Part shown: piece by piece, positions 1 to 53,394 of the stretch
Numbering within the stretch: position 1 is the stretch's first letter
Layout of the letters: every line of letters begins with the position of its first letter
DNA from: a virus
Lineage: Duplodnaviria; Heunggongvirae; Uroviricota; Caudoviricetes
Direction: 5' to 3' (one strand)
DNA: 64,000 nucleotides
IMG/VR virus record: IMGVR_UViG_3300036768_001066
Notes under the pieces: generated by a model
Told to the model about the DNA's origin: nothing
The model's input: only the letters and a program-made list of their open reading frames with translations
Database searches by the model: none
Translations under genes and position numbers: made by a program

Positions 1-19
1 CAGGGGATCTTTGCAAAAA

Positions 20-6814: not shown

Positions 6815-6830
6815 GAATATATAAAGAAAC
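6815..6830 (+). promoter_or_regulatory. recurrent upstream motif gaATATATAAagaaac (putative phage promoter element)
   Basis: One of about 14 instances of GATATATAAG(A)AAA found 15-45 nt upstream of start codons; here 17 nt before ATG 6847. Confidence 0.4.
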
Positions 6831-6846
6831 AAATTATCATCATACA

Positions 6847-7632
6847 ATGAAGAGGAGAACAATGCTATTTGAGCAGTTCAACACGGCGAGCGCATTTGAA
6901 GCCCTGTGTGAATCTGTAACAGGCGACATCAAGGACATTCAGGGCGAAGTCAAGGACGTCATGGACGAGCTCGGCAAGGAAGGCGCTAAGGACGACGAGC
7001 TCAAGGCCGCAATCCTTTTGCAGGCTATTGAGAATGACGGGGACCTCGAGGAGATAGATCCAGAACAGCTTAAGAAGGACGTGAAGGAGGGTATGACCAT
7101 CAGGGACCAACCTATTAACGAGAACGCAGGTGGCATCATACATGTAGTGGAGGTCGCTGGTAACTTGCTCGGCAATTCTGCGTTTCTCGAATTCTTGTTC
7201 AAGAAGCTCGAGAAGCTGACCGGTAAGCCGGTCGACGGCGAGAAGGTCAAGGACACCATGAACAAGATCTTCGGAGCATTGAAGAAAGTAACGGGACTGC
7301 CCGGCAAGGCCATTGGTAAATTTTTCTCATGGGTTGCCAAGAAGCTCGGCGCCAATGAAACCGGACAGAAGACGTCGGCACTTCTCGGAATGGGTGCTCT
7401 CGTAATATTCCTGTTCACACTCGGCATTATACACTTCCCGGTTCTGGGTTCTGGAATACTTTGGTGGGTTCTTTCGTTGACCGGCCTTGTTGGCAAGTCG
7501 GCCGAGCTCGCGCACATCTACAAAGAAGTGAATGAGCTCATCAAGAGCGCGGCCAACAAGAAGGCCGAGGCCGAGAAGGAAGTCGGCATGGATGCGGAGG
7601 AGATGGAGAAGCTCGCGCAAGCAGCGGCCTAA
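6847..7632 (+). CDS. membrane protein (several TM helices), hypothetical
   Basis: 261-aa ORF. Acidic coiled N-terminal half, hydrophobic segments ALLGMGALVIFLFTLGIIHFPVLGSGILWWVLSLTGLV. Confidence 0.6.
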   Translation: MKRRTMLFEQFNTASAFEALCESVTGDIKDIQGEVKDVMDELGKEGAKDDELKAAILLQAIENDGDLEEIDPEQLKKDVKEGMTIRDQPINENAGGIIHVVEVAGNLLGNSAFLEFLFKKLEKLTGKPVDGEKVKDTMNKIFGALKKVTGLPGKAIGKFFSWVAKKLGANETGQKTSALLGMGALVIFLFTLGIIHFPVLGSGILWWVLSLTGLVGKSAELAHIYKEVNELIKSAANKKAEAEKEVGMDAEEMEKLAQAAA

Positions 7633-7653
7633 AGATAAATCTTATATTCGAAA

Positions 7654-7682
7654 GTTCCGGAGAAATCCGGAACTTTTTTTTC
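7654..7682 (+). terminator. rho-independent terminator (gttccgga-gaaa-tccggaac plus T9)
   Basis: 8-bp perfect stem, GAAA loop, nine consecutive T; directly after stop of 6847..7632. Confidence 0.8.
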
Positions 7683-7711
7683 TGCGCGGTATAATAAGTA
7701 AATTTTACAAT

Positions 7712-8443
7712 ATGAATACGCAAGACAAGATGTCGTCGTTCTTTGACTTCGGGGTGTTTAATTACGTGCCCAGTGACAAGAGCAGCATAATGCACCTGAA
7801 ATTCAACGAGGCGCCGGCCAAGTCCGCACCGCCGGATCACGAGTTGCGGGGCGTTACTGAGGTCCACCTATCCACAGCGGTCAAAGACATAGAGACCATA
7901 TCGGAGAACATAAAGATTGCTGGCGATCCAATGGCAGATGTTGCCGAGCACGTCATCGACAAAGCGTTTGACAGGCTATTGGAGATCTCGGCAGAAAACG
8001 GGAAGCTCGTCAACGACAGGTTTCCTACCGGCATAAACCTGAAGCTCGACGGTAACGCGCACCGCAAGATATTCGCCCGCATACTCGCGGTCTCCAATAT
8101 GATCGCGGTAATGGGCAGGAGGGGGCCGGCAAACTTCGCGCTCGTCAGCGAATCCACATACAAACGTCTGTTCTTCCCGGATGGAGAGACCAAGAACAAG
8201 TTCTACCAGCCGGACCCGAACGCAGGCGGCCTTAAGTTTTTCATCAGCCCGGTTGGCAATCGTGTAATCGTGGGTCGCAAGGGGTCAATGGAGGAGAACG
8301 GCATATTCATAAAATGCGATACTCCGGAGGTCGAGGATTACAAGATCGACGAGAGTCATGACATCGAGAGCGTGGATGTAAAGTACTCGATCACGGAGAT
8401 TGGAGACTTTCTTCCGTACATCTCGTTTGACATTGTCGAATAA
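7712..8443 (+). CDS. hypothetical protein (possible virion protein)
   Basis: ATG at 7712 in frame with track ORF 7532..8443, which overlaps the upstream gene and terminator. 243 aa. Confidence 0.55.
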   Translation: MNTQDKMSSFFDFGVFNYVPSDKSSIMHLKFNEAPAKSAPPDHELRGVTEVHLSTAVKDIETISENIKIAGDPMADVAEHVIDKAFDRLLEISAENGKLVNDRFPTGINLKLDGNAHRKIFARILAVSNMIAVMGRRGPANFALVSESTYKRLFFPDGETKNKFYQPDPNAGGLKFFISPVGNRVIVGRKGSMEENGIFIKCDTPEVEDYKIDESHDIESVDVKYSITEIGDFLPYISFDIVE

Positions 8444-8708
8444 AACGGCTATATTTATATTTATAGAAGGCCGGTCGTACGCGGCGGGCTGTTGCACGCT
8501 GAGGAAATTCGCGTCATCTCTGCTTAGGAGGAGTGGGAGGCAGCAATGCCGGTATAGTACCACCGTAAGTGAAAGTCCTTCCGAGATGCAACCCAAACAG
8601 ACTTAGGCGGTGAGCAGGTCGATGATGGTCGGGTTGGGGCATAGTCAAATGTACGGCGCCTCGCAAGAGGAACAGAAACGCGATTATAGGCCTTCTTATT
8701 TTTAAAAC

Positions 8709-8996
8709 ATGCTTAGAAGATTCATATACACAGGGGACATATCCGCGAACGGCGGTCCCAAGATCCTGCACGGCAACGACACCGATGTTTCGCTGCTAAC
8801 AATCGTCCAGGTACATAAGGACACGGATATGCGCCCTGACATAGGATCATATTACGGCAACCTCGTAACGTTGGAGGAGTTCATAGATAACGAGGAATTC
8901 TCCTTCGAGACAAACTACTTACAAGGTAGGCGTGATGCCATTGAGTATCTCGAGAAATTCAAGAATCTTGGTGTTGCTGAGATTCGACGTGAATGA
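8709..8996 (+). CDS. hypothetical protein
   Basis: 95-aa ORF. Overlapped by ORFs 8932..9135 and 9123..9695 in other frames; the three may be separate small genes or a frameshifted unit. Confidence 0.4.
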   Translation: MLRRFIYTGDISANGGPKILHGNDTDVSLLTIVQVHKDTDMRPDIGSYYGNLVTLEEFIDNEEFSFETNYLQGRRDAIEYLEKFKNLGVAEIRRE

Positions 8997-9122
8997 TGGG
9001 GCAGCCGATACAATATTCTTCAGGATAAACAACAGTACGGACCTGGCGAGCCTAATGGTGCACATACACGCGTGGCGCCCGGACGAATTCACAAGGCAAG
9101 ATAACGAAAACTGGTTCAGACT

Positions 9123-9695
9123 ATGGTGGGACTAAGAGAAGACGAGCGACTGCTCCGCATGATAAATGAGTGGCGCCTTAAGCCGGAGGGCATGGGCAAG
9201 AAGTACCTCGGCATAGAGTCTATGTCTTGGCACATGTCGGTGTACCCAATGTGGTTCAATGACGATCTCGAAGTGCGGCTGAGGATAAAGTACAACGCAG
9301 CTAACCCCATGAACGGGCAGAACTTGCTATATGTAATAGACATCGCCAACGACCGTGTCGTATACAATGGCTTGGACATCGACGAACTCGAGACGTTCCC
9401 GGACGACAAGCTCGTTATGGTGGAGTCCATGGTGAATCTCGCAGATCACGTAATATCTGTGATGCGCGGCCGAGAGAACGAGCTGTACGACTTTAAGAAC
9501 ATACAGGCCGAGCTCCACCGGAGGATGGACGAAGAAGCACACAAGAGACTCGCCAAGCGGTACAAACACCACGTCGAGGAGGCACAGCTCCTCGGGTACG
9601 AAATAAAAACATACCACGAATTCATAAACACGCTGAGCGATGAAGACAAAGATTATATTCAGGGGGTCTGGGAGAGATCAATCATACCAGATTGA
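9123..9695 (+). CDS. hypothetical protein
   Basis: 190-aa ORF with protein-like composition. Confidence 0.5.
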   Translation: MVGLREDERLLRMINEWRLKPEGMGKKYLGIESMSWHMSVYPMWFNDDLEVRLRIKYNAANPMNGQNLLYVIDIANDRVVYNGLDIDELETFPDDKLVMVESMVNLADHVISVMRGRENELYDFKNIQAELHRRMDEEAHKRLAKRYKHHVEEAQLLGYEIKTYHEFINTLSDEDKDYIQGVWERSIIPD

Positions 9696-9880
9696 TACGG
9701 AGCTTGGTATGCAGCCGGCCGAAAAAACGGTCATGACGTTTCATGACGTGGACCAGGTGCCGGACTGGGTCCGCAACGAGCGCTGGTACGTTCACGACAC
9801 CCAGATAGATTTCTTCGGCAGTACCAGCTACATGGTACCCATAATGACCGTGTCGTTGAAAACGACTATCTAAAGATCTC

Positions 9881-9890
9881 AATATATAAG
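9881..9890 (+). promoter_or_regulatory. AATATATAAG motif inside palindrome atctcaa-tatata-agttgagat
   Basis: Motif instance only 6 nt before the ATG of the 1264-aa ORF, flanked by a 7-bp inverted repeat. Confidence 0.35.
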
Positions 9891-9895
9891 TTGAG

Positions 9896-12800
9896 ATGAT
9901 ACTTGCATTTTCACATACGCTGGACTTTCCATACGAGACCGCATTGGCGCTCGCCAAGGAGAAATTCCCGGACCTCGACTATTCGAACGTAAACACCTCG
10001 CGCGACCTCGATACGTTGCTGCTCGAGGCAGGCGAAATACTTTACGTAGACATAGACTTCGATAAACAGAGCAGGGAGGCGATAGCACTCGAGAACGAGA
10101 CGGCCAAGATAGTGGAAGCGCAAATAGGGGTGCTCGAATGCCCGGAGGACGGTGTGCCGCTCGTGTACACACAAGAGGAGCTTGACGCCGCCATATCCTG
10201 CGAGGTGCCCAACGAATTCCCGGACCCTAACTCCGACGACCCGGACGCCGCACCATCGGATAAGGATCTTCTCGAGTTGAATGCGGAGATAAGTCAGCTT
10301 GAGAAGGAGCTCGACCAGATACTCGAACTTCAGGACGAGGATAAGAATAAGATGCTCGACTGCGTCGGCAAGATGCAAAGCATAGCGGACGAGCTGAACG
10401 TCCTGATAGACAGGGAGACAAAGGTCAGGGAGACCGAGATAAATCTCGAGGAACTCTACTACAACTTCAGCATATTCGAGCGGTACTACAAAAAACGTGT
10501 ACAGAGGCTCGATGAGATACTCGGCATATTCGACCCGTTAATCATAGAGAAGCGAAGGCTTGAGGCGGAGATAGACAGGTTCCAGCCCATCCGCGACGAC
10601 GACAGAGATAAGTTCATCGAGCTCGACAAGATAATAAACCCCCAGAACTATACGTCCAACGTGTCCGGCATAGCTAACGCCATAGGGAACGCAACAGCAA
10701 ATGCTGTGAGCAGTGTGGCTGGTGCAGTGTCCACGGCCGCCGGAGACGCGGGGTTAAGCGGGATTGCTGGCGCCGCGCAAAACGCGTCGAACGCAACTTA
10801 TACGCCTCAGTACTCGCAGCAACAATACTCAGACTGGCAAGCCGCCAAGAAATTATTTGAGGACGACGAGGCATATCTGAATCAGCTGAAAGCGGATTTG
10901 CAGACCACCAAGGACAACCTCACAATGGAGCAGAACAAGATAGCTCCGTTCCTTAACACCGACGTCACGACAGTCAACACGCAGCAGTACGGCAGCAACG
11001 CAGAGTACGAGAGGTTCAGGTTCCTCGAGCAACGTCTCGCAGGGCTGTTCAGCGGCGCAGGCGATTCAATATACACCAGGATAACGACGTTCACGACCAG
11101 GACGACTGCTGTGCAGCAGCAGAACAGCAACAACTCTAACACAAACGAATCGTTCAGGCTCGAAATAAAATACACCCCCATAGACAGGGCCAATATTCTC
11201 GCCGGACGACCGAAGACTTACATGTTCTCCGACCAGGACACCACCATATTGCCTGTACCGCCTAACGAGACACCGCACGGTATTCTGTATGACAGGCTAT
11301 ACAATATATGGGATGACGACGAGAAATTTTTCACGAGGGAGGAGAGGGGATTAACCGCAAACGCCGCGGACGCCGCGTCAAACCTTAAGGGCTCCGGCGC
11401 CGAAGTATTCAAGGGCAGCTTCATAGGCGACGTGTCCAAGTTCAGGGCGTTCTATGAGAACTTCACACAGGAGTGGGAGAACAAGGTGTCGTTTACCAAA
11501 GAGAACGTGATAAACCCGGCGCATGCCGATCTTATCAGCGCGCTCGAGTTATTTGCTGTTAGTGAGGTCGAGTACCTCCTCGCATACGGAAACGCATACG
11601 AACAGTTGCCAGCCGACGTGCAATGGCTCGGCAACATAATAGAATATGTTAGGCAGTCGTCCGAGCGGTACATGGCAAAGACGCAGGAGCTGAGATCCGA
11701 TTTTCTGTTCGTGCAAGAATCGCACAAGAAGGTTATCGCGGACATCACGACAAAGCGCGGCCAGTACTTGACAGTTCCATGCGCATTAAATACCGCGCCG
11801 CCAGAACAGACGGAGCCGGACGGAGCCGGCAGCGACCCGCTCGGTGCGGAGTCTCTACTGAGTATGGACCCGTCAAAACCCAACCCTACAAAGTGGTGCT
11901 ACTGGGTGCGCTTTGCTGCATACGCAACTGCCGTCAATATACTGCCGCTGCCTGGTAGCGGTGGTTTCAGGTACTGGCCGATAGGGCTTACAATACCTAA
12001 TCCGAGCGGACTGATAAAAATACCCCTCCCGATAATCTGGATACCTATAGCCGTTATACCGCTGCAGGTGGGAATATTCGTAATATTCATTGGGCTGTGT
12101 GGTATATGTCCTTCACCGGTCGTGTTCTACATAGGGCCGAACGGCGAGAAGAAGTTCATAATATCGCTGAGGCCAGGTGATGACTTCGGAGCAAACGCGG
12201 AGGAGTCGATAATAAAGACCATAGACAAGCTCGGCGTCGGCATCAAGGCCCCGATAAAAAACCTGATAAATCAAATACAGGTGCCAGGCTTCCAGCCTCT
12301 GCTGAACCCGGACGGTTCGTCTGGATTGCTCGAGGACATAAAGGACAAGATAATAAAAAACATACAGAAGCTGCCGCAGTTGCCAAGCACGGCGCGGCTC
12401 AACGCACTCGATCCTAACGCGTCGATAGACCAGAAGCGTGCTGAGCTCAAGAACGCAATACTGGCCGAGATAGACAAGATAAAAATACCGGACCTAAAGT
12501 TCCCGAAAGACGGATCAACCGTAAATCCGAAACCACCTCCGATAACGGAGATCATTGACCAGCTGAAGAAGGCGGCTAAGCTTAATCTGCCTCAGTTGAT
12601 GGTGCCGTCCGTCGAGAAGATGAATCTTAAGACGAAGTTGCTCGCGGAGATAGACAAGCTTGGGCTGGAAGACGTAGAGCTGCCTTCGATACCGCGGTTG
12701 CCGGAAGTGCCGAACGAGCTTAACGATTATCTGAAGAAGGTGCGCGAGGCATTGGTGAAGTTCATAGGTAAAGCGAAATCAAAGATAACACCGGAAGGGC

Positions 12801-13690
12801 TCGGCATCCTCGCGGAGATAGGGATCGAGGGCGTTGTGTTCGTAAACCCGTACCAGTGCAAGGGCACGACTAAGGGTTTATCGTTGCCGCCAATACCGGG
12901 GCCGGTATTGATTGGACTCGCCGTGCTCGACCAACTGACGCTCGCCGCAGTCAACGGTATATCGACCGAGAACATGCTGAAGCTGCTTGGCAACAGGCCG
13001 GCGTTGCCGGGTAATTTAAAAGAGCTGGCAAGGAACGTTCTCGGCACCATGCCTAACGTGGAGGTACCAAACCCGTCGAAGGTGTCTATAAAGGACATGC
13101 TCAAGGACTCGGTTAAAATGGTTGTCAAGATGCAACTGCCGAGCCTGCCGGACCCTACTAAGCCGCCGCAGATAAGAATATCCGTGCCGGGCGAGCTGCT
13201 GAGAGGTTCGTTGAAGGTCGGCGTCGAGGGCATCATGAACGCGTTCCCTGCCCAGACGGTTCCATTCCCGACGCTGAGTCCGATAGATCTTAAACAAATT
13301 ATGGTATCCATAGTGGAGGATTCGTTTAAGCCCGTAGAGGATAAGCTCGGACCGTTCCTCGACATAGCGCAGGGATTCCAGAATGCGAAAGATAAGAGCT
13401 TTGCCGAACTGCTCGGCCTAAAGAAACTGAACCTCGACCACTCGCGCATACCCACTGTCACGCCGGAAGCGATGGCGGCTGCGATGGCGGTGGTTAAGAC
13501 CATATCGCTAACCCCGTACCCAGCTGTCGCGATAGCGCCGCAATTATTCAAGCAGCTGCACCCAGTGCTCACGAGCGACGACCTCCCGCCATGGGAAAGG
13601 TTCACCCTCGACAACTTCCTGTTCGTGTGCTTCCTCGACGAGTGGTGCAGGCAGGGCAAGAAAACGTGCGGATTTTTTGAGAATCCTTGA
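9896..13690 (+). CDS. large (1264 aa) coiled-coil / Ala-Gly-rich / TM-segment protein; possible tape-measure or ejection/internal virion protein
   Basis: Long uninterrupted ORF. N-terminal coiled-coil heptads, low-complexity A/G/S stretch (NAIGNATANAVSSVAGAVSTAAGDAGLSGIAGAAQ), strongly hydrophobic block (WCYWVRFAAYATAVNILPLPG...IPLQVGIFVIFIGLCGICP), repetitive proline/lysine-rich C-terminal half. Confidence 0.7.
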   Translation: MILAFSHTLDFPYETALALAKEKFPDLDYSNVNTSRDLDTLLLEAGEILYVDIDFDKQSREAIALENETAKIVEAQIGVLECPEDGVPLVYTQEELDAAISCEVPNEFPDPNSDDPDAAPSDKDLLELNAEISQLEKELDQILELQDEDKNKMLDCVGKMQSIADELNVLIDRETKVRETEINLEELYYNFSIFERYYKKRVQRLDEILGIFDPLIIEKRRLEAEIDRFQPIRDDDRDKFIELDKIINPQNYTSNVSGIANAIGNATANAVSSVAGAVSTAAGDAGLSGIAGAAQNASNATYTPQYSQQQYSDWQAAKKLFEDDEAYLNQLKADLQTTKDNLTMEQNKIAPFLNTDVTTVNTQQYGSNAEYERFRFLEQRLAGLFSGAGDSIYTRITTFTTRTTAVQQQNSNNSNTNESFRLEIKYTPIDRANILAGRPKTYMFSDQDTTILPVPPNETPHGILYDRLYNIWDDDEKFFTREERGLTANAADAASNLKGSGAEVFKGSFIGDVSKFRAFYENFTQEWENKVSFTKENVINPAHADLISALELFAVSEVEYLLAYGNAYEQLPADVQWLGNIIEYVRQSSERYMAKTQELRSDFLFVQESHKKVIADITTKRGQYLTVPCALNTAPPEQTEPDGAGSDPLGAESLLSMDPSKPNPTKWCYWVRFAAYATAVNILPLPGSGGFRYWPIGLTIPNPSGLIKIPLPIIWIPIAVIPLQVGIFVIFIGLCGICPSPVVFYIGPNGEKKFIISLRPGDDFGANAEESIIKTIDKLGVGIKAPIKNLINQIQVPGFQPLLNPDGSSGLLEDIKDKIIKNIQKLPQLPSTARLNALDPNASIDQKRAELKNAILAEIDKIKIPDLKFPKDGSTVNPKPPPITEIIDQLKKAAKLNLPQLMVPSVEKMNLKTKLLAEIDKLGLEDVELPSIPRLPEVPNELNDYLKKVREALVKFIGKAKSKITPEGLGILAEIGIEGVVFVNPYQCKGTTKGLSLPPIPGPVLIGLAVLDQLTLAAVNGISTENMLKLLGNRPALPGNLKELARNVLGTMPNVEVPNPSKVSIKDMLKDSVKMVVKMQLPSLPDPTKPPQIRISVPGELLRGSLKVGVEGIMNAFPAQTVPFPTLSPIDLKQIMVSIVEDSFKPVEDKLGPFLDIAQGFQNAKDKSFAELLGLKKLNLDHSRIPTVTPEAMAAAMAVVKTISLTPYPAVAIAPQLFKQLHPVLTSDDLPPWERFTLDNFLFVCFLDEWCRQGKKTCGFFENP

Positions 13691-13736
13691 TGGAAGATTG
13701 GGGGCAACATTGGGTATCTTTTGCCGTATAACCCGC

Positions 13737-15146
13737 ATGAGCGAAGACACCAAAAAATTACTGATACCGATAGACCTTAACACCGGCCAGCGCGAGGCAT
13801 TTAAGAAGATTGTGCACTTTCTCGAGGCCGGCGGTGATTCTATGTTCTTGCTCGAGGGATACGCGGGCACCGGCAAGACCTACCTCGTATCCAAGATAAT
13901 CAGGCACGTGCTGACCAAATTTCCAGGATGGAAGATAGCCGTGACCGCGCCTACCAACAAAGCGGTGAAGGTCCTGCAGAAATCGAGCAGCATGAAGGAC
14001 CGCAAGCTCGAGTTTCAGACCATACACAAGCTACTCGGCCTGAAGGAGCAAATAACCAATGACGGCAAACAAGTATTCGTAAGGCAGAACGAGGAGGATT
14101 CGACCATAGAGGACTTCCACTTCGTCATAGTCGACGAGGTGTCCATGCTAAGCGACGAGCTGTTCGTAGAGCTGTACAGGCACAGCGGGCACGTTAAGCT
14201 GCTATACATGGGCGACCCGGCACAGATTCCACCGGTAGGAAAGCCGGACTGCATTCCATTTATACCGGAGGAGAGGGAGAAGTACGTCATGGACAGGTGC
14301 ACGCTCACGGAGACCATGCGCCAGGCGGAGGGCAACCCCATACTCGCTGCGGCTTTCGCTATCAGGAATGACCTGAAGTCGGATGTCCACCCGGACGTCC
14401 CGAGGCAGACAACGCTCGGATGCGACGGCAAGGGCGTCGTGATAATAGATGCTAATAAAAAGGAGGAGCGCGACAAACTCACCGAGCTCTTTACTGAGAA
14501 GTTCGATTCGCCTGAGTTCACCGCGAACCCCGACTACGCCAAGATAATCGCGTGGAGGAACGTAACGGTGGACAACCTAAACCGCATTATACGCTCTATA
14601 ATATACAAGCAGACCGACCTGGCTAAGATAATGCCTGGCGAGAAGCTGATAGCGAACAAGCCGGTGGTGTCGGATTACGACACAATCATATTCACCACCA
14701 ACGATGAATTCGAGGTTGTATCGTACGACATACGCACGAGGAACTACGCGAGGAATAACTATGACGAGGCGGTGAAGCTCCAGATATACGAGGTCAAGGT
14801 CAGACATATCGACATCGACGGACGCGAGATCACAAGGGAAGTAGAAATACTGCACGAGGATTCAGAGGGGGACTTCAACAGGCACGCAGCGTACCTAAAG
14901 AGTGAGGCCATCAAACTAAAGGGTAAGGACCGCTCTTGGGTCAAGTACTACGATTTCTTACGGAAGTTCGCGGACGTGAGCTACAACTACGCAATCACGG
15001 CGCACAAGGCGCAGGGTTCTACGTACACCAACACATTCATAATAGAGGACGACATCAACTACAACAGGAACGTGTACGAGAGGAATAGGATTAAATACAC
15101 GGCATACACCAGGCCAACGGACCTACTCTATATTGTGAGGCGATGA
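13737..15146 (+). CDS. Dda/RecD-like superfamily 1 DNA helicase
   Basis: Walker A LEGYAGTGKTYLVS, Walker B FVIVDEVSML, and a C-terminal ...ITAHKAQGSTY...YTAYTRPTDLLYI motif typical of RecD/Dda/Pif1-type helicases. ATG at 13737 in frame with track ORF 13677..15146. Confidence 0.8.
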   Translation: MSEDTKKLLIPIDLNTGQREAFKKIVHFLEAGGDSMFLLEGYAGTGKTYLVSKIIRHVLTKFPGWKIAVTAPTNKAVKVLQKSSSMKDRKLEFQTIHKLLGLKEQITNDGKQVFVRQNEEDSTIEDFHFVIVDEVSMLSDELFVELYRHSGHVKLLYMGDPAQIPPVGKPDCIPFIPEEREKYVMDRCTLTETMRQAEGNPILAAAFAIRNDLKSDVHPDVPRQTTLGCDGKGVVIIDANKKEERDKLTELFTEKFDSPEFTANPDYAKIIAWRNVTVDNLNRIIRSIIYKQTDLAKIMPGEKLIANKPVVSDYDTIIFTTNDEFEVVSYDIRTRNYARNNYDEAVKLQIYEVKVRHIDIDGREITREVEILHEDSEGDFNRHAAYLKSEAIKLKGKDRSWVKYYDFLRKFADVSYNYAITAHKAQGSTYTNTFIIEDDINYNRNVYERNRIKYTAYTRPTDLLYIVRR

Positions 15147-15521: not shown

Positions 15522-16073
15522 GTGAAATACATCAAGGACATAGGACTGTTTGAGGCCGAACACATTAACTACAAGAAAATCGACCTCCGTGCCGAATTCG
15601 ACCATATCAATACGCGCCAGTTCGACGGCAAAGTTAAACCGGTGCCGCTGAGGTGGATGAACTCGAAGAACACCGTAGGGCTCATGAGCTACGACGGGCA
15701 GAATATCCGAGACATAGGCATATCGTACTACTACAAGATGTCACTCCAGGAGCTCAGGAACGTTCTCGCGCACGAGATGATACACGCATACCTTGAGCAA
15801 ACGGGGGTGAGGGAGCGGGACGCGCACGGCCCGAGATTCATGAGGATGAGGGAGGAACTGAACAAAAAATTCCCAGAATACAACATAGTCAAGTCGGAGA
15901 ACGCCGAGGAGTTCGAGGTTTCGAGCTATGCGAGGATAAAGGAATACGGGGTCGTCATATTTGACGAAATCGAGGCTATCAGTCTCGTAGTCGTGCCGGT
16001 AGACCTGATAACCGATAATAACCTGGCGGACTTTATTGTGTGGCTAAAAAAAATACGGTCTGCATATTTTTAG
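15522..16073 (+). CDS. SprT-like zinc metalloprotease; carries the shared N-terminal leader (GTG start, VKYIKDIGLFEAEH)
   Basis: HEMIHAY ... HGPRFMRMREEL is the SprT-like HExxH plus downstream His motif. N-terminus matches the leader family. DNA at the start (aaatacatcaaggacata) is 17/18 identical to the start of 22489..22923. Confidence 0.65.
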   Translation: MKYIKDIGLFEAEHINYKKIDLRAEFDHINTRQFDGKVKPVPLRWMNSKNTVGLMSYDGQNIRDIGISYYYKMSLQELRNVLAHEMIHAYLEQTGVRERDAHGPRFMRMREELNKKFPEYNIVKSENAEEFEVSSYARIKEYGVVIFDEIEAISLVVVPVDLITDNNLADFIVWLKKIRSAYF

Positions 16074-16333: not shown

Positions 16334-17431
16334 ATGGGCAGACTCATAGAGAACAAGTCAGTAATAACCAAGGACCCAAGCCACAAGGTATACTGCCAGG
16401 AACCATACGCGCAAGAACTTTACGACAAATACCAGGCCTACTTCGAGGGCCGCTCCATAGTCCCCAAAGACATGGTTGTGGGCCAGATATGCAAGGCCAG
16501 AGTAGACAAAGTCGACGGATCGATCGTCGTTGTTACAACGGAATCGTCCGCGAACATATTCCTCGACTACCAGAAGGAAAGCAGATTCCTCGAGAAAACC
16601 GGGCACACGCTCAAGCCGGGGCTGCAAGTGGATGTCCTGCTCGAGACAATCAACAGGGGCAATTACTACGGCTCTATAGAGAAGGCGTACATGATAACCC
16701 TGAAGCGAGACCTATTCGATTCTATGAAAACAGAGTTTACCGCTTACAAGGGCACCATCAAGTCCATAAACGATGGCGGCTTCATGGTCGACATCGCCGG
16801 GCTCGACTGCTTCATGCCAGGATCCCTGGCTGCCGCCAACAAGGTCCTCAACTTCGAGTCAATGCTCGGCAGGGAGGTCATGGTAATGGTGGAAAACTAC
16901 CTCGAATCGTCCGACATGTTCGTAGTGTCGAACAAGAAGTACATACAGAAGATAATCCCTTCGAAGATAAAGGAACTCGACCTCGGAGCGCAATTTACCG
17001 GGATCGCAACTGGGACTGTGGACTACGGCGTGTTCGTGGAGTGGGACGAGATGTTCACAGGGCTCCTGCACGAATCCGAGATTACTGACGGCGACTGGAG
17101 GAACATAAAGCCGGGAGACCAGATGAAGTTCTACATAAAGGAGATACGCGAGAACAACCGTATCATACTAAGTCAGAAGGGTCCATCGCCTGAGATTATG
17201 GCGCTGACCGAGTTCAAGGCCAAGTACGAGGGAGAGATTGTGACGGGAGAGATCAAGGACATCAAGCAGTTCGGGGCCTTTGTTGAGATGAAGAACAAGG
17301 TGACTGGATTGTTACCTACCAAGGAACTAAAGAAACTCGGACGTCTCAAAGTCGGCGACGACGTGGACGTTTACGTGAAATTCGTGGATGTTTCGGCTCG
17401 CAAGATCTACCTGAAGGCCGACGAAGAGTAA
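16334..17431 (+). CDS. ribosomal protein S1-like protein (multiple S1 RNA-binding domains)
   Basis: At least four S1-type repeats (VGQICKARVDKVDGSIVVV...; GTIKSINDGGFMVDIAGLDCFMPGS; TGIATGTVDYGVFVEWDEMFTGLLHESE; GEIVTGEIKDIKQFGAFVEMKNKVTGLLP). Motif gtatataataaag lies about 55 nt upstream. Confidence 0.7.
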   Translation: MGRLIENKSVITKDPSHKVYCQEPYAQELYDKYQAYFEGRSIVPKDMVVGQICKARVDKVDGSIVVVTTESSANIFLDYQKESRFLEKTGHTLKPGLQVDVLLETINRGNYYGSIEKAYMITLKRDLFDSMKTEFTAYKGTIKSINDGGFMVDIAGLDCFMPGSLAAANKVLNFESMLGREVMVMVENYLESSDMFVVSNKKYIQKIIPSKIKELDLGAQFTGIATGTVDYGVFVEWDEMFTGLLHESEITDGDWRNIKPGDQMKFYIKEIRENNRIILSQKGPSPEIMALTEFKAKYEGEIVTGEIKDIKQFGAFVEMKNKVTGLLPTKELKKLGRLKVGDDVDVYVKFVDVSARKIYLKADEE

Positions 17432-17564
17432 TCTAAGGGGAATAAGGGGTCGAAATACCGAGTGTAAACCAGGAACCCTGAGCGAGTCGCGACGTACAGA
17501 CACAGGGGCCAAATCGCGAACGATAGATACGGCCTGCTCACTGTTAGGCACTCAATCTTAGATG

Positions 17565-17600
17565 AGAGGGACCATTAAAACTGGTCCCTCTTTTTATTTT
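17565..17600 (+). terminator. rho-independent terminator (agagggacca-ttaaaac-tggtccctct plus T-rich)
   Basis: 10-bp perfect stem followed by tttttatttt, about 130 nt downstream of the S1-like gene. Confidence 0.8.
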
Positions 17601-17741
17601 ACACGATATATAAAACATGAAGAAGATGGAACAACTGAAGCCAGAACAAGCTAACGAAATAACATGATGAGGAATGTCATTATCACAAACAGCTGCGAGG
17701 ATGGGAACGGGTGCCGACTTATTATTAAAATTGGGTCTTAG

Positions 17742-19109
17742 ATGAACATACAAGAAAGCAAAATACTGAACGGCCTGGTCATTGGGTTCGAGTTCGAGAT
17801 GTACACCAACAAGACGAGGAAGGAGCTCTCCAAGGAGCTCGGCGCCATCGTCAGGAAGAAGATTAAGGTCGGCGAGGTGTACCACTCCGAGACTCCGCTC
17901 GGCGATGGCGAATGGAAGGTCGAACCTGACTTCTCCGGCGGCGTCCGCATGAACGAGATCATCACAGAACCGATGCCGTACTACGAGGCAATATCTTGTT
18001 TGACCAAGGTGCTTGGGTGGATACGGGACAACGGGTGGACCGACGAGAAGTGCGCGCTGCACGTCAACATGTCGTTCGACGAGTTCAAGATAGACCTTAA
18101 GAACAAGCTGCAGTTCATAAACAAGCTCAAGTTCATACTCGGGTTCGACGAGCAGTTCATATACGACAGATTCCCGAAAAGGAAGAACTCGATGTACGCC
18201 AGGAGCATCAACCAGATACTGCCGGTAAACAAGTTCATTTTCAACGAGAACATCACACAGATACACAAAGAGAACTACAAGCTGCCGAGCGACAAGTACT
18301 ACGGCATCAATTTCTCCAAGCTCTCGAAGGGATACTTCGAGGTCAGGTACTGCGGCGGGCGAAGCTACGAGAAGAAAGCACACGACCTGCTCCAGATAAT
18401 AAATTATATCGGCACGTTCACGTATAACGTGCTACAGAACAACAACATCTATACTGATGCGGAACTGTCGAGGCTCAAGAGCGTCATAGTCGAGCACAAG
18501 AAGGTGGTATCCTCGTTCTCGGACATGGAGGCGTTCTTCTACAACTACCCGAACATAAAGCTGTTTGTGGACCTGAAGGGTGAGCCGCAAGTGATTAAGA
18601 CGTACTACCCGGTACTGAGGGAGAAGCTGTTCGATCTCATCGTCAACTGTGGCATGCGTAAGGGCATCCTAAACTACGACGCAGATGCCGGAAGGTATCA
18701 ACTCAAGGACGCCATAATACAGAAGGGATTCGACATAAAGGAACTTGAATTATTTGACTCCAAGCTACAGGGCAACATACTCGGGTGCGACCTGTACAGG
18801 TGCGTGATAACTAACGCGCACGTCGCAGACTCCAACCTGTACTCCGGCAATATCGTGTCGAAGTCAAAGATAATTAACACGCCATTCCACGCGTACAATG
18901 AAGCGCACAGTTGCTACATCGACAACAAGAAGCGAATAATAAACGGTAAGGTCGAGGGTGGTATCATAAGGTCCGGCGAGATAGGCCAGCTGGCAAAAAT
19001 ATCAAAGGAGACCGAGGTCATAGAGCAGGTGCTCAAGGCCGACAACAAAGACGACAAGGGAACGCCAAACACTCACGGCAAGACCGAGCTCGGCATAAAT
19101 AAACTATGA
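17742..19109 (+). CDS. putative amidoligase (Amidoligase_2 / GCS2-like)
   Basis: N-terminal VIGFEFEMYTN ... GEWKVEPDFSGGVRMNEIITEPMPY fits the amidoligase signature (G-x-E-x-E, then w.v.pD.S, then E.vt.P). The minus-strand ORF 17544..18383 opposite is a Leu/Val-rich shadow. Confidence 0.5.
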   Translation: MNIQESKILNGLVIGFEFEMYTNKTRKELSKELGAIVRKKIKVGEVYHSETPLGDGEWKVEPDFSGGVRMNEIITEPMPYYEAISCLTKVLGWIRDNGWTDEKCALHVNMSFDEFKIDLKNKLQFINKLKFILGFDEQFIYDRFPKRKNSMYARSINQILPVNKFIFNENITQIHKENYKLPSDKYYGINFSKLSKGYFEVRYCGGRSYEKKAHDLLQIINYIGTFTYNVLQNNNIYTDAELSRLKSVIVEHKKVVSSFSDMEAFFYNYPNIKLFVDLKGEPQVIKTYYPVLREKLFDLIVNCGMRKGILNYDADAGRYQLKDAIIQKGFDIKELELFDSKLQGNILGCDLYRCVITNAHVADSNLYSGNIVSKSKIINTPFHAYNEAHSCYIDNKKRIINGKVEGGIIRSGEIGQLAKISKETEVIEQVLKADNKDDKGTPNTHGKTELGINKL

Positions 19110-19177: not shown

Positions 19178-19909
19178 ATGACAGAGGCGCAACTAATTCA
19201 AGAAATAAACAACGAGCTCACCCTATCGTGCGCGCTCCCGTACTCGCTCAACGAGGCGGAAGTCAAGCGTATCATAAAGAGGGCCCGCGAGTATTTCTAC
19301 GATAACTACCAATATGCCGTCGAGGACAGGTTCATCCTGATACCAGAGGGCATATTCCAGCACGAGAGCTTCAAGACCAAGCGCGAGATAATACTTCCAG
19401 ACTGCGTCATGTCGGTGTACGATATGCGCGAAATCACCGGTCTCGGACTCGTGGGCCAGCCGGAAAGAGACTTCTCGGACTCAAAGCTCCTCGGAGCCGA
19501 GATATTCCTTTCACCATTCCAAGGTGACAACCTCGTTTACAGGACGGCGATGTACAGCTACTTCGACCTCGCAAGGGCTTACCTTCTCGAGACCATAGCA
19601 TACAGCTTCAACAAGAACACGAAGAGAATAACTGTTATGGGCCGCAACCCGTTCAGGAGCGCAGTAATACGCACGATGGTGAAGATACCAGAAGAGAATC
19701 TTTATGACGACGAGCTGTTCGTTCGCTACTGCCTGGCGATGGCCAAGATAAACCTCGGACGCACGTTATCCATATTCAACTACAACCTGCCAGGCGGTGT
19801 ACAGATAAACTTCGACGGCATCAAACAGGACGGCAAAGAGGAGCTCGAGAAAATTCTGGCACAGATAGACAGCGAGAACTCTCCTGCATGGTTTTTACTG
19901 TGGAGTTGA
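19178..19909 (+). CDS. hypothetical protein
   Basis: 243-aa ORF. Confidence 0.55.
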   Translation: MTEAQLIQEINNELTLSCALPYSLNEAEVKRIIKRAREYFYDNYQYAVEDRFILIPEGIFQHESFKTKREIILPDCVMSVYDMREITGLGLVGQPERDFSDSKLLGAEIFLSPFQGDNLVYRTAMYSYFDLARAYLLETIAYSFNKNTKRITVMGRNPFRSAVIRTMVKIPEENLYDDELFVRYCLAMAKINLGRTLSIFNYNLPGGVQINFDGIKQDGKEELEKILAQIDSENSPAWFLLWS

Positions 19910-19981: not shown

Positions 19982-21131
19982 ATGCAGTGTATATCGAAGA
20001 ACCCTGAACATGTGGCGGAGCTGCGAGAACTGACCCGGTTTCTCGACGAGATGTATGCACCAGCAGAAAATATTTCCATACAACAGCGGTTCTACCACGT
20101 GTGGTTTTCCAGCTATGAGATTGAGGTTTGTCCATATTGTTCGGCCCCGCGAGAGTTTTCAAAGATGAGAAAATTCTCCATCGATCGGTATGGCATCAAG
20201 CCAACAAATGCAGTTAACTATTACGCTACATGTACTGCTATAGAATGCAAGAAGAAGTATAACTTAGATAAGACGCAGGAAGCAGTGAAAGCTAAGTATG
20301 GAGTCGACAATTATTTTGAGACCAAAGAATGCAAAGAAAAGGTCATAGCGACAAACCGCGAGCGGTACGGTTGTGATCACCAGACGCAATCTCAGAACTT
20401 CAAGGATAAAGTCAAAGTTAACTTATATCAAAAAGTACGGAGTCGAGCACCACACGCAATCCGACCAGTCAAAGAAGAGGAAGATCGATACGGTCCGTGC
20501 CAAGTACGGTGTAGACCATGTGCTACAAAACAAGTCCGTAATGAAGAAGTTACAAAATACAAACAAGGAGAGGTACGGAGGCGCGTCATCGATGTGTTCG
20601 GATGTGGTGAAAGAAAAGGCTCGCAACACAAACAGGTCAAAGCACGGTGCAGACTGGTACACACAGTCCAAGGATTTCAGGGCCAAGTTCAGGGAGACGA
20701 TGGTGGAGCGGTATGGCGTAGAGCACATCATGCAGCACGCTCCGTCGTTTGATGCTAACAAGTCAGCACAGTTCAAGAAGAAATTATACATGTTCCCGTC
20801 TGGTAGGCTCGAGAAGATCCAAGGGTACGAAGGGTTTGCTATCAACGACCTGCTTAACATGGGGTATGTGGAGGACGACATAGTGGTGTCGAACGCAGAG
20901 ATAGAGAAGCACACGGGGCGCATCTGGTATGTCGATTCTGTAGGAATTAAACGCAAGTACTACCCCGATATTTATATAATATCTGAGAATAGAATAGTGG
21001 AGGTTAAGTGCGACTATACATTAAAAACAAACCTTCCATTGAACTTATTAAAAAAACAAGCAGCAGAAGCACTTGGTATTAAGTTCGAGTTTTGGATATA
21101 TAACGGTAAGGGTGTTAAAACTATAAAGTAG
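19982..21131 (+). CDS. putative nuclease: N-terminal CxxC zinc ribbon, tandem about 30-aa (K/R)YGV(D/E)H..Q repeats, C-terminal PD-(D/E)xK-like motif; interrupted by a +1 frameshift near 20400-20420
   Basis: Frame A (19982..20752) reads CPYCSAP..., KAKYGVDNY..., RERYGCDHQTQSQNFKDKVK, then junk. Frame B (20373..21131) resumes the repeat in phase: LTYIKKYGVEHHTQS...RAKYGVDHV...KERYGG...VERYGVEH... C-terminal ...YYPDIYIISENRIVEVKCD fits a PD...E.K nuclease core. Confidence 0.5.
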
Positions 21132-24856: not shown

Positions 24857-25792
24857 ATGAAGAAACTGAAGGACATATCAGAATTCGGGGGGCCTGGTGA
24901 GACCGCGCTCGACGCTGCTTTGAAAGCACCGAACGGCAAGAAGTCCTCCCTGCCCGCGAATTTGCACGCGATGGTCCGTACGCCGGAGTTCAAGACCTGG
25001 TTCGGTGACTGGGAGAACGACCCGGAGAACTCGAGCAAGGTTGTGGACAAGAACGGCGAGCCCATGGTCGTGTACCACGGAACTCCGTCATTTGGATTCA
25101 AGGAGTTCATGAATGACTACAAGATGGCAAGGGCGACTGACAACGAGACGAACGACCTCGGCATCTGGTTCACGAACGACCTGCGCGTGGCAAAGGAATT
25201 CATGTTCAATTCGTCTAAGGGTGGCATCTACGAGGTGTTCCTAAACATGAGGAACCCCAAGGTATTCAAGCCGGCTCTGTTCAACCAATCAGAGATAGAC
25301 GCACTGGAGCAGACAATACACGACTTGAACGTGGACAAGGTCTCACTCGGCTGGTCAGTCAACGATATGACGCCAGACAAGCGCGAGAAGTTCTACAAGA
25401 TAGAGAGGCAGATGAAGGACCTGCACGACCAGATCAGGCTGCTGAAGCACACGGATTCATTCGAGCAGTTCATGAACTACAGGGACAAATACACAGAATA
25501 CATAAACGGTCAGAAGGGGAAGCCTGGCGCATGGCTCGAGAGGTACATCAACACTAACAAGAAGGAGGCAAACCTTAAGCTATTGAAGGAGCTGACCGAC
25601 AGCCAGCACGACGGTTTTGCCATAGTAGATACCCGGTACGACGCACCGAGTAAGAACTCCAGGGTGAGCCAGTACTGCGTATTCGACTCGAAGAACATAA
25701 AGAGCGTCGACAACAACGGCAGGTTCGACCCGGGGACGAGTAATATATACGAGGGAATTCACATAAAAAGCATAGACAGCTTCGATATATAA
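24857..25792 (+). CDS. ADP-ribosyltransferase-fold protein, H-Y-E (PARP/Tpt1-KptA-like) type, paralog A; carries the leader (MKKLKDISEFGG)
   Basis: VVYHGTPSFGFKEF (H-G-T motif, compare KptA LYHGT and PARP HGS) followed by DLGIWFTNDLRVAKEF (compare PARP GKGIYFAD) and a GGIYEVF candidate catalytic Glu. Shares this core with 31351..32211 and 35536..36165. Confidence 0.5.
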   Translation: MKKLKDISEFGGPGETALDAALKAPNGKKSSLPANLHAMVRTPEFKTWFGDWENDPENSSKVVDKNGEPMVVYHGTPSFGFKEFMNDYKMARATDNETNDLGIWFTNDLRVAKEFMFNSSKGGIYEVFLNMRNPKVFKPALFNQSEIDALEQTIHDLNVDKVSLGWSVNDMTPDKREKFYKIERQMKDLHDQIRLLKHTDSFEQFMNYRDKYTEYINGQKGKPGAWLERYINTNKKEANLKLLKELTDSQHDGFAIVDTRYDAPSKNSRVSQYCVFDSKNIKSVDNNGRFDPGTSNIYEGIHIKSIDSFDI

Positions 25793-26885: not shown

Positions 26886-28616
26886 ATGGCAGAGCAACCA
26901 AGCATATTCAAGAAGAACCGACTCGCGATAGAACTGCTCATCGAGGACTCGATAAACTTCACCGTCGACAAGTTCCGCCAGAGCAGGACCAACTTCACGG
27001 TAGCATCCGCTTATGGCCAGATAATCTTTGTCCTGCACAACCTGGCGCAGATGATACTGTACTACATTGAGGACTCCATAACCGAGCTAAACATTAACAC
27101 GGCTACCAGGGCCAACTCGGTCACCGGTCTTGCGCGTCTCGCCGGGCACAACTCTACGAGGGCGATCTCTGCCGTCGGCGAGATCGGTCTCTCGATAAAG
27201 GCCGGGGCGGACATAGACATACCGGGGGGCACCGTCATACTGCCGAACTGGACCAAGATAAAGTGTGTGAACAACGGCCAGACATACATGCTCGACCTAC
27301 CTGGCGACGAGGTGCGCATACCTCTGGACGGGTCGAAGAACGGCACGCCAGTGAACATAATCCAGGGCCTGCTCGAATCGCAGAGCACTACCGGTACGGG
27401 CAAGCCATTACAGTCGTTCTCTCCCAACTTCAACCAGACAGTGCTCGTTGAACACTATCGTGTCAACGTGTACGTCAACGGGGAGAAGTGGAAGCTGTAC
27501 GACTCAATGTACGACATGCCGCGCGAGGCTAAAGGATGCCTTGTCAAGACTGGCATAAATTCCGGTATAGACGTTATATTCGGCAACGGTCACTTCGGCA
27601 AGATGCCTGAGCTCGGCGCCGAGATACTCGTCGAGTACGTGGTGTCATCCGGTCTCAACGGTAACCTCGTGCTCGCCACAGACGAGGAGGCCGTGTACAA
27701 GTGGGACGACGTAGGGTACAATCTGTACGGTGAGGAGCTCGACCTAAACGAACTTCTGACAGTCAGGAGTATCAACGCACCGGACTTTGGGTCCAACCCG
27801 GAGCTGCTCGAGCTCACCAGGCTCATAGCGCCGAAGACTTCCAGGTCGTACACGCTCGCTAACGAGGACCACTGCATCGTGTTCCTCGAGAAGTTCAACC
27901 AGTTCTCCATCATAGACGCGTACACCACGCCGAATGATGCGGACCTGACCGACGACAAGATAATCTACCTGTTCCTCGTGCCAGACGTCAAGAAGAAGCT
28001 GAAGTCTAACGAGAACTACTTCAACATAGACGAGTCGAGGTTCACACTCAACGACTTCCAGAAGGAGAAGGTGCTGACGTTGTTTGAGAGATCCGGGCAG
28101 AAGATAGTGAGCACCGAGCTGCAGATAGTGGACCCCAAGATAAGCAGGTTCGTCATAAACATAGCGCTGATAGTTTTTGACGACATCCCGCAGGATATAA
28201 TAAAGCAGGACGTCATAGAGAAGCTGAGCGACTACTTCTTGAACATCAGGCGAAGGGACCGTATCCCGCGCTCCGACCTCATCTCAATATTGGAGAACAT
28301 ACCGGGGATAGACTCGGTCAACATCTCGATAGTGTCAGAGATAGACGAGCGCCAGTATCAGCTTTCGCTGACGTCGGGAAGGAGCTCGACCGCCAACTTG
28401 GAGCCGCCTCGCATTGACGAGTTCGGCGACATACTCATACAGCCGGGCGAGCTCGCCATAGTGCGCGGAGGATGGACCGACAGGAGAGGCATAACATACG
28501 AGAAGGACGTAGACGACGAGGTACCGAGCTCGGTTAACATCGTCATCAAGAAGGTCATACCGAAGACGTACAACACGGGGGTAAACCAGAACACCAAATC
28601 TAATCTTAGAGGATAA
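26886..28616 (+). CDS. baseplate J-like (gp6/gpJ family) protein
   Basis: 576 aa. N-terminal ...FTVDKFRQSRTNFTVASAYGQ and C-terminal ...RRDRIPRSDLISILENIPGIDSVNISIV resemble conserved ends of the Baseplate_J family. Lies next to the gp25-like gene. Confidence 0.5.
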   Translation: MAEQPSIFKKNRLAIELLIEDSINFTVDKFRQSRTNFTVASAYGQIIFVLHNLAQMILYYIEDSITELNINTATRANSVTGLARLAGHNSTRAISAVGEIGLSIKAGADIDIPGGTVILPNWTKIKCVNNGQTYMLDLPGDEVRIPLDGSKNGTPVNIIQGLLESQSTTGTGKPLQSFSPNFNQTVLVEHYRVNVYVNGEKWKLYDSMYDMPREAKGCLVKTGINSGIDVIFGNGHFGKMPELGAEILVEYVVSSGLNGNLVLATDEEAVYKWDDVGYNLYGEELDLNELLTVRSINAPDFGSNPELLELTRLIAPKTSRSYTLANEDHCIVFLEKFNQFSIIDAYTTPNDADLTDDKIIYLFLVPDVKKKLKSNENYFNIDESRFTLNDFQKEKVLTLFERSGQKIVSTELQIVDPKISRFVINIALIVFDDIPQDIIKQDVIEKLSDYFLNIRRRDRIPRSDLISILENIPGIDSVNISIVSEIDERQYQLSLTSGRSSTANLEPPRIDEFGDILIQPGELAIVRGGWTDRRGITYEKDVDDEVPSSVNIVIKKVIPKTYNTGVNQNTKSNLRG

Positions 28617-29167
28617 TGAGATTTCTAAAGACATACGCCGGGCTCTTTGAGAGCGAGAATAGTGAGAAGAAGCTCGCGTGCGCGCTCGTATCATTCGACG
28701 TGCCACTTCTCAAGACGCTGCACTCTGCCATAGACAAGGAGGACCTCGACGAGAAAGGATTCGAGGATGAGCCGCACGTAACGCTGCTGTTCGGCCTTCA
28801 CCAGGACGAGGTCACGGCGGAACAAGCCTTCGCGTGCATGCGCAATTGCATGGGCGAGGACGGCTGCGGCGACATAACGCTCGGGCCCGTTTCAGTATTC
28901 TCCAACGACAAGTTCGACGTGCTAAAGTTCGATGCCATCGGGGATTGGCTGCATGCCACTAACAGAGAGCTGAAGGAACTGCCACACACAAACGAGTATC
29001 CAGACTACAAACCTCACTGCACGCTCGCATACCTGAAGCCAGGGCTCGGGCAGAAGTACGTTGCGCTTTTTAACGGTCTATTGTACAAAGTGAAGCCGAA
29101 AGAGTTTATATACTCAGACGCCGACAGGAACCAAACAAAAATGCCGATAGTACAAAATGCCGCTTAA
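28616..29167 (+). CDS. 2H phosphoesterase (LigT / 2'-5' RNA ligase / cyclic phosphodiesterase-like); carries the leader (MRFLKTYAGLFESEN)
   Basis: Two H-x-T-x motifs at the expected spacing: PHVTLLFG and PHCTLAYL. Confidence 0.65.
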   Translation: MRFLKTYAGLFESENSEKKLACALVSFDVPLLKTLHSAIDKEDLDEKGFEDEPHVTLLFGLHQDEVTAEQAFACMRNCMGEDGCGDITLGPVSVFSNDKFDVLKFDAIGDWLHATNRELKELPHTNEYPDYKPHCTLAYLKPGLGQKYVALFNGLLYKVKPKEFIYSDADRNQTKMPIVQNAA

Positions 29168-53388: not shown

Positions 53389-53394
53389 GTCAGG

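Follow-up and report, generated by a model that had tools for sequence, protein, structure and literature searches.

A huge-phage amidoligase fused to a beta-helix, and two accessory ATP-grasp ligases encoded on the same 64-kb stretch of DNA

The 64,000-nucleotide stretch of Caudoviricetes DNA in IMG/VR record IMGVR_UViG_3300036768_001066, referred to here as the window, encodes three proteins which a first-pass annotation had read as an amidoligase-like enzyme (gene A) and two ATP-grasp enzymes (genes B and C), together forming one toolkit for making amide bonds. The three open reading frames (ORFs) and the motifs quoted for them, GFEFEM, EPDFSGG and EIITEP in A, DVDGKAWYIEHN in B and DIGMLNDGELVIIETGDGG in C, are present as described, and the many homologues found for each gene mean that none is a chance ORF. 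The analysis described below shows that A is a core gene of a clade of huge phages and that its product joins an amidoligase to a beta-helix, an architecture that was previously undescribed. It appears reasonably probable that the window holds three independent ATP-dependent carboxylate-amine ligases rather than the parts of one pathway, and that A acts late on a macromolecular target. Coordinates of the features discussed are collected in Table 1.

Searches of Pfam, PHROG, NCBIfam and PDB sequences with the A protein of the window returned no match. Homologues of A at E ≤1e-3 number 167, with identity reaching down to approximately 36%, and the best 120 of the 167 all have E ≤3e-87. The Pfam family PF12224 (Amidoligase_2) was matched by 22 of 43 aligned homologues (E ≤0.01, best E 2.5e-8), and a precomputed PF12224 label was found on many homologues, one of them 93% identical to A. 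In the source databases the homologues are labelled only as 'hypothetical protein', apart from one mislabelled as a pentapeptide-repeat protein. An AlphaFold model of A was built on the family alignment and compared with predicted viral structures using Foldseek. The top match was a full-length homologue (template modelling score 0.85), and behind it came some 40 phage proteins that bear the name 'amidoligase enzyme', with the proteins of Pseudomonas phage tf and Agrobacterium phage Atu_ph07 among them. The glutamine-synthetase-like catalytic fold of A is therefore common to the named phage amidoligases and, with PF12224 recognised in the homologues, the original description of A as a GCS2-like amidoligase is upheld.

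The active site of such enzymes is reportedly built from a G-x-E-x-E strand, a cluster of acidic E/D residues, an H-x-H motif and an E-x-R motif. The corresponding elements of A are G15-x-E17-x-E19, E61-x-D63-x-S65-G-G with E72, and E200-x-R202, while H-x-H appears as H/Q107-x-N109. E17, E19, D63, E200 and R202 do not vary among the 43 homologues, 42 of the 43 have E72, and G15 is invariant or nearly so. Judged from these residues, the N-terminal domain is a phage PF12224-type amidoligase in which the acidic and arginine residues of the putative catalytic site are intact.

The catalytic domain is followed by a helical linker, a left-handed parallel beta-helix and a Lys/Asp/Gly-rich tail. Conservation was expressed as the frequency of the commonest residue in each alignment column, averaged over each domain, and gave 0.60 for the catalytic domain, 0.55 for the beta-helix, 0.53 for the linker and 0.34 for the tail, which also varies in length among homologues. 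Thus the beta-helix is conserved as well as the enzyme domain. The structural neighbours nearest to the C-terminal domain are acyltransferases and nucleotidyltransferase-linked beta-helices, for example LpxD and GlmU. No Hexapep Pfam match was found in the beta-helix of the window protein or of the 43 family members, a weak match to Pentapeptide_4 was found in only 3 of the 43, and no strongly conserved histidine occurs in residues 305–418. The beta-helix would appear to be a module for oligomerisation or target binding and not a second enzyme. In contrast to GlmU-type fusions, the N-terminal domain of A is a ligase and not a nucleotidyltransferase, and there is no evidence that the helix of A is an acyltransferase.

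The glutamine-synthetase-like fold is common to A and to LUZ24 gp18, UFV-P2 ORF23 and the amidoligase of phage tf, all encoded by phages, and A has four motifs in common with the classical PF12224 enzymes, namely G-x-E-x-E, E-x-D-x-S-G-G, H-x-(H/N) and E-x-R. However, the classical enzymes are single-domain proteins of approximately 260–390 residues encoded in early or replication-module cassettes, whereas A has the added linker and beta-helix, lacks the cassette partners and is encoded between an rpS1-like gene and a neck gene. Identity to the wider glutamine synthetase / GCS2 / PafA-Dop superfamily is only 7–14%, the catalytic domain of A is much shorter at approximately 210 residues, and the N-terminal beta-grasp domain of glutamine synthetase is absent from it. 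A search of the literature found no experimental characterisation of any phage PF12224 enzyme.

At least 472 relatives of A were found in IMG/VR. Only 7 matches were found among 185,579 species genomes, all of them on contigs of metagenome-assembled genomes (MAGs), mostly in Bacteroidota bins. Among GenBank phages, relatives were confined to 6 uncultured megaphage records of 462–735 kb (Al-Shayeb et al. 2020). A is a phage-restricted core gene, and the uncultivated huge phages that carry it make up a large clade with kinship to the 'Mahaphage' group.

The gene order at the A locus was examined in 82 related loci, and in 78 of the 82, with 64 distinct A proteins between them, the order was S1-like gene, A, gp13-like neck gene. 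In 40 of these 64 distinct loci the S1-like gene ends inside A, the overlap of its stop codon with the start of A being 8 or 11 nt, and co-translation of the two genes is implied. This overlap can be seen by eye in locus L007, where the S1-like gene occupies 6800..7969, A 7962..9383 and the gp13-like gene 9386..10159. The spacing between A and the gp13-like gene is ≤17 nt in most loci, and A is packed against the neck gene as tightly as it is against the S1-like gene. The S1-like protein of the window is collinear with residues 58–344 of bacterial S1 (E 4e-20) and corresponds to the 'possible rpS1' proteins of Al-Shayeb et al. Its score against the rpsA models was approximately 100 bits, where the cut-offs are 368–918, and it lies outside both the rpsA equivalog and the six-domain definition; it is S1-like and not a bona fide rpS1. 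Orthologues of the gp13-like gene carry PF26809 (Phage_T4_gp13), and a baseplate wedge gene is found within 8 kb downstream of the A locus. One A homologue of 38% identity is located among other giant ORFs.

The junction between the S1-like gene and A differs in the window, where the overlap seen in most relatives is replaced by a spacer of 310 nt containing a terminator-like hairpin, found in this lineage only, and the promoter-like motif ATATATAA. The hairpin is suggestive only, because such sites are no commoner in the scanned region than in shuffled sequence. Twelve exact copies of ATATATAA are present in the window, against 1.27 expected, and all are on the + strand. The distance from each copy to the + strand ATG downstream of it ranges from 4 nt to a few tens of nt, and these start codons include those of baseplate genes and giant ORFs. 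The motif is often found immediately after a T-rich hairpin. On this evidence it looks like a T4-late-promoter-like element for structural genes, and its occurrence upstream of A as well as of structural genes suggests that A is expressed with them. The motif was also considered as a general promoter of the S1-A-gp13 block in relatives and was rejected, since it was found upstream of the S1-like gene in 4 of 74 loci and between that gene and A in 15. A 10-nt direct repeat, TCTTAGATGA, at 17556–17565 and 17736–17745, brackets a 180-nt segment which contains the hairpin, ATATATAA and a 16-codon mini-ORF (17618–17668); the chance probability of a direct repeat as long as this is approximately 0.04. 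Recalling that the two genes overlap in most relatives, the bracketed segment looks like an insertion which has uncoupled them.

Gene B has 10 close homologues, and 323 cluster representatives were found at E ≤1e-3 in 1.84 billion proteins. Its own Pfam matches fell below threshold (YheCD at 19 bits with a cut-off of 26.8, and Ddl_C at 15.5 bits). However, a profile made from 50 sequences of the B family matched D-Ala-D-Ala ligase at 9.6e-10, and also TTL, RimK, PurK and cyanophycin synthetase. The AlphaFold model of B had a predicted local distance difference test score (pLDDT) of 75 and the N-terminal 100 residues were modelled poorly; Foldseek with this model returned Ddl, TTLL6 and PurK at E 4.5e-8 and a probability of 1.00. 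The structural and profile matches together bear out the ATP-grasp assignment. The 50 sequences, which range from 17 to 70% in identity, show K120, G129 and E155 to be invariant and R157, D243, E256 and N258 to be at least 90% conserved, and B has the ATP-grasp lysine, the E-x-R, the Mg-binding aspartate and the E-x-N motifs. The fold and the ATP/Mg motifs are common to B and to D-Ala-D-Ala ligase, RimK, TTL/TTLL and YheC/D. Members of the B family match the YheCD (35 of the 50 matching ATPgrasp_YheCD), Ddl_C, ATPgrasp_ST, TTL and RimK profiles and are split over at least six Pfam ATP-grasp models, with no dominant match above threshold, and B itself falls in no single subfamily. B belongs to a small ATP-grasp family which is apparently new and could be placed in none of the characterised subfamilies.

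B is located 79 nt upstream of, and divergent from, the 1162-aa first giant ORF, and its homologues of 49–70% identity occupy the same slot, divergent from the same ORF. A homologue of 40% identity was found among the tRNA-synthetase genes of another phage. These differing contexts indicate that B is a mobile accessory gene. A pattern scan of IMG/VR for relatives of B confirmed none, and hhalign of the B family against the single sequence of LUZ24 gp21 was uninformative (E 0.071).

The ATP-grasp assignment of C was direct, with a match to PF14243 (R2K_3) at 5.7e-16 and 59.6 bits (cut-off 26.3), and PF14243 was found on all 63 of its homologues. K171 and K175 in the KDxVKS motif (KDWVKSAK in C), E232, R234 and D277 are invariant, and the ExGD motif, IIE(290)TG(292)D(293)GG, is at least 90% conserved in 19 aligned sequences. 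The pre-ATP-grasp N-terminal block is also conserved, at F7, P8, E24 and YRGWMM 85–90. Replacement of ExN by ExGD is the hallmark of R2K.3 (Burroughs, Zhang and Aravind 2015, PMC4431377), a family in the clade of CDC123, and C likewise has the ExGD motif, the paired lysines and the N-terminal pre-ATP-grasp region. R2K.3 proteins were described as mainly bacterial and linked to GNAT or R2K.2, with R2K.2 reported from phages (PMC4431377), and R2K genes are sporadic in jumbo phages (Iyer et al. 2021). In contrast to the R2K.3 genes of the earlier description, C stands alone in a huge phage, and no GNAT, R2K.2 or ADP-ribosylglycohydrolase gene was found as its neighbour in the window or in syntenic homologues.

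The neighbours of C in the window are a 117-aa ORF and, directly downstream, a 337-aa ORF whose GDVDYVV motif hints at a nucleotidyltransferase of the pol-beta type. These genes were considered as conserved partners of C and rejected, the 337-aa gene and the small flanking ORFs being absent from syntenic relatives. Homologues of C at 41–44% identity have the same position, on the opposite strand, between blocks equivalent to 47956..58810 and 62256..63339. The first-pass annotation had the two ATP-grasp genes flanking the giant ORFs on the opposite strand. This is approximately right, C being located 3.9 kb past the end of the last giant ORF (56921) in a four-gene minus-strand block (58807..62153). 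Both B and C are accessory genes inserted singly, on the opposite strand, at conserved positions next to the giant ORFs. The two are not closely paralogous; a comparison of their profiles with hhalign, in which C was represented by R2K.3, gave E 0.036.

Each of the three enzymes would be expected to ligate an amine to a carboxylate via an acyl-phosphate, probably on protein targets. By analogy with related ligases, A would phosphorylate a carboxylate with ATP and an amine would then attack the acyl-phosphate to give an amide or isopeptide bond, with the beta-helix, held by the helical linker, serving for oligomerisation or target binding. B and C probably add amino-acid or peptide tags to proteins. 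Given that A has none of the small-molecule partners of the classical cassette and is often translationally coupled between the rpS1-like and neck genes, its target is most probably a protein, or at least a macromolecule, of either the phage or the host, and its action is probably late in the infection; A may itself be a packaged enzyme. The folds, motifs, conservation and gene order were thus observed, and the chemistry, timing and targets are inferred from them.

Several results weigh against this reading of A. Its own sequence has no Pfam match even at E ≤1, the histidine of the H-x-H motif is glutamine in 20 of the 43 members, and hhalign of the A family against the single sequence of LUZ24 gp18 aligned only the H-x-H/N motif (E 0.7). 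It could also be that the beta-helix has acyltransferase activity of its own, in which case the chemistry would differ from that proposed here. The case for late expression leans on ATATATAA, a putative promoter which is not general in relatives. In the 634–735 kb megaphages A is far from the S1-like gene, by tens to hundreds of kb, and from the neck genes, and has different neighbours, thus the place of A beside structural genes elsewhere may reflect inherited gene order and not function.

A more specific proposal would place the target of A in translation, as either the rpS1-like protein of the phage or the ribosome of the host. The S1-like protein would then be the substrate itself or a targeting subunit, and an amide-linked group added by A would reprogramme translation, in a viral analogue of the RimK–S6 or PafA–Pup pairs. 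The 8 or 11 nt overlap of the two genes in so many of the distinct loci agrees with this, as do the collinearity of the S1-like protein with bacterial S1 and the proposal that huge-phage S1 proteins redirect translation (Al-Shayeb et al., PMC7162821). However, Lak phages have an S1-like gene and no detectable A, the two genes are widely separated in the megaphages, the spacer with its terminator-like hairpin parts them in the window, and the neck gene is just as tightly packed against A. The S1-like protein of the window ends in ...ADEE, recalling S6, and this tail was considered as a RimK-type substrate. It was rejected because the C-termini of approximately 60 orthologues are neither conserved nor acidic, which makes a RimK-style tail unlikely. 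The specific S1 or ribosome proposal is therefore regarded as unlikely, and a late macromolecular, probably protein, target is ranked above it.

Many ligases with the glutamine synthetase fold use small substrates. A could accordingly act on a small molecule or a nucleic acid, for instance in the amidation of nucleotides, of modified bases in RNA or DNA or of cell-envelope precursors, with the beta-helix as a second, acyltransferase, catalytic domain as in GlmU. The GlmU and LpxD type neighbours of the C-terminal domain and the co-translation of A with an RNA-binding S1 protein would fit such a role. However, the beta-helix has neither a conserved histidine to act as catalytic base nor a Hexapep Pfam match, and no genes of nucleotide or sugar metabolism are conserved beside A, so this role is considered improbable.

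The proposal of the first-pass annotation was that the three enzymes form one toolkit acting on a common product, which could be a metabolite, a precursor of the cell wall or a modification of the virion. Such cassettes do exist, since a PF12224 amidoligase and an ATP-grasp enzyme are encoded together in phages UFV-P2/LUZ24 (PMC3890496), and in LUZ24-like, phiEco32-like and HMO-2011-like phages the PF12224 enzyme belongs to an early-gene cassette with a class-II glutamine amidotransferase (GATase), an ATP-grasp enzyme and a gamma-glutamylcyclotransferase (GGCT). All three enzyme classes are also found in the window within 44 kb of each other. However, distances of 24 and 17 kb separate the genes, which occupy opposite strands and have no promoter motif in common, and their distributions are discordant, A being found in more than 470 IMG/VR loci and B in none by the same method, with the 40%-identity homologue of B located elsewhere. 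Neither B nor C was found within 8 kb of A in any of 80 A loci. No GATase, GGCT or other classical cassette partner was found among the approximately 50 window ORFs scanned or beside A homologues, no GATase, GGCT or ATP-grasp gene was found beside A in the window or in four related loci (L002, L003, L104 and L105), and BLAST of LUZ24 cassette proteins gp15 to gp23 against the window gave nothing better than E 0.3. A GATase or peptidase partner for A had also been envisaged; a gene for a SprT-like metallopeptidase is near A in the window alone and is not conserved beside it. The distances, strands, distributions and lack of partners favour three independent enzymes, and the idea of a single toolkit is not supported and is considered highly improbable.

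It is also very doubtful that A is mainly a structural part of the neck or collar, like T4 wac upstream of gene 13, trimerising by its beta-helix with the ligase domain vestigial or reduced to a binding module, for although left-handed beta-helix proteins are typically trimers, the helix is as well conserved as the enzyme domain and A lies directly upstream of the gp13-like gene (≤17 nt in most loci), the invariant or near-invariant E17, E19, D63, E72, E200 and R202 sit on the expected active site of glutamine synthetase type and A is not beside the neck genes in megaphages.

The window comes from a huge phage, and a protein identical to B is also encoded on a contig of 373,759 bp. The hosts are probably Bacteroidota. 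This is indicated by the first giant ORF, whose homologues are found in jumbo phages of Tenacibaculum, Chryseobacterium and Flavobacterium, in Sphingomonas phage PAU (as gp264) and in Prevotella Lak phages; the ORF is kept from Lak phages and megaphages through to the cultured jumbo phages. Weaker clues to the same host are a match to a type IX secretion system (T9SS) sorting domain in a 700-aa protein and the binning of A-bearing MAG contigs as Bacteroidota. The three giant ORFs are presumed to be structural, and the third has a weak collagen-repeat match.

Table 1. Features of the window, with coordinates, strand and basis of assignment.
Feature	Coordinates	Strand	Basis or remark
Gene A, 455-aa amidoligase / beta-helix fusion	17742..19109	+	ORF; AlphaFold 2 model, mean pLDDT 87.6; homologues
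A residues 1-212, glutamine-synthetase-fold (PF12224-type) amidoligase catalytic domain	17742..18377	+	
A residues 213-304, helical linker domain	18378..18653	+	Model helices 213-232, 239-257, 262-268, 282-302
A residues 305-418, left-handed beta-helix domain	18654..18995	+	Left-handed parallel beta-helix fold
A residues 419-455, Lys/Asp/Gly-rich tail, weakly conserved	18996..19106	+	pLDDT <50 at 432-455
S1-like gene (ribosomal protein S1-like), 365 aa, several S1 domains	16334..17431	+	Pfam S1 2.6e-27; upstream neighbour of A
gp13-like neck / head-tail adaptor gene	19178..19909	+	phrog_211 'head-tail adaptor Ad2' 2.2e-8; downstream neighbour of A
Terminator-like hairpin, window lineage only	17564..17592	+	11-bp stem, 6 G-C pairs, then T run
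ATATATAA promoter-like motif	17606..17613	+	136 nt upstream of A
ATATATAA copies	6817, 9882, 17606, 21096, 22112, 23526, 25785, 26857, 36158, 44409, 53396, 62233	+	
Gene B, 321-aa divergent ATP-grasp ligase	43415..44380	-	Fold and family profile
Gene C, 326-aa R2K-clade ATP-grasp ligase (R2K.3 type)	60786..61766	-	PF14243 match
337-aa gene directly downstream of C	59702..60715	-	phrog_24943 'DNA polymerase' 1.2e-32; GDVDYVV motif
Three giant ORFs	44460..47948, 47956..53388, 53430..56921	+	No functional annotation
700-aa protein	37300..39402	-	BiPBP_C domain 4.8e-9; weak T9SS C-terminal sorting-domain match 0.004
RecD/PIF1-like helicase	13677..15146	+	Between 1264-aa gene and S1-like gene
SprT-like metallopeptidase	15522..16073	+	Between 1264-aa gene and S1-like gene; 1.7 kb upstream of A
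DUF7487 gene, split into overlapping ORFs in different frames	19982..20752 and 20373..21131	+	
ART-PolyVal ADP-ribosyltransferase genes, two	24857..25792 and 31288..32211	+	1.9e-19 and 2.6e-10; within structural module
2H phosphoesterase	28616..29167	+	Acb1 (anti-CBASS) family match 26-28 bits, about gathering score
Dephospho-CoA kinase CoaE	11..637	+	5e-33
5'-deoxynucleotidase NT5C	2502..2969	+	9e-14

Other genes of the window are listed in Table 1. A conserved 1264-aa gene is located upstream of the S1-like gene. In most relatives no other gene comes between its homologue and the S1-like gene, and in the window the SprT-like and RecD/PIF1-like genes are insertions between the two. The 1264-aa gene itself gave no Pfam, PHROG or PDB match. 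The DUF7487 homologue in L002 is a single ORF of 452 aa, and its splitting in the window is a frameshift which may be genuine, programmed or introduced by assembly. As candidates for packaged or injected effectors which modify the host there are the two ART-PolyVal proteins, and the 2H phosphoesterase may counter host defence as a nuclease that attacks cyclic-oligonucleotide signals. The left end of the window has two auxiliary metabolic genes, CoaE and NT5C.

C extends the R2K.3 family into huge phages and B appears to define a small new ATP-grasp family, and both are ordinary accessory genes of the 'moron' type. A is the most interesting of the three genes. It is also unusually tractable, being a core gene in hundreds of huge-phage genomes with conserved putative active-site residues, a distinctive added domain and a fixed genomic partner, the gene of an rpS1-like protein for which a role in hijacking translation has already been proposed. 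Should A prove to act on a protein of the ribosome or of the virion, it would reveal a new kind of viral post-translational modification. The boldest form of this idea, which we regard as a long shot, is that A is a clade-wide protein modifier, co-translated with the rpS1-like protein, and that it attaches an amide-linked tag to this partner, to the ribosome of the host or to a protein of the neck or virion. If this were true, A would be for viruses what RimK is for S6 or PafA for Pup, and would add a new layer of translational or virion control.

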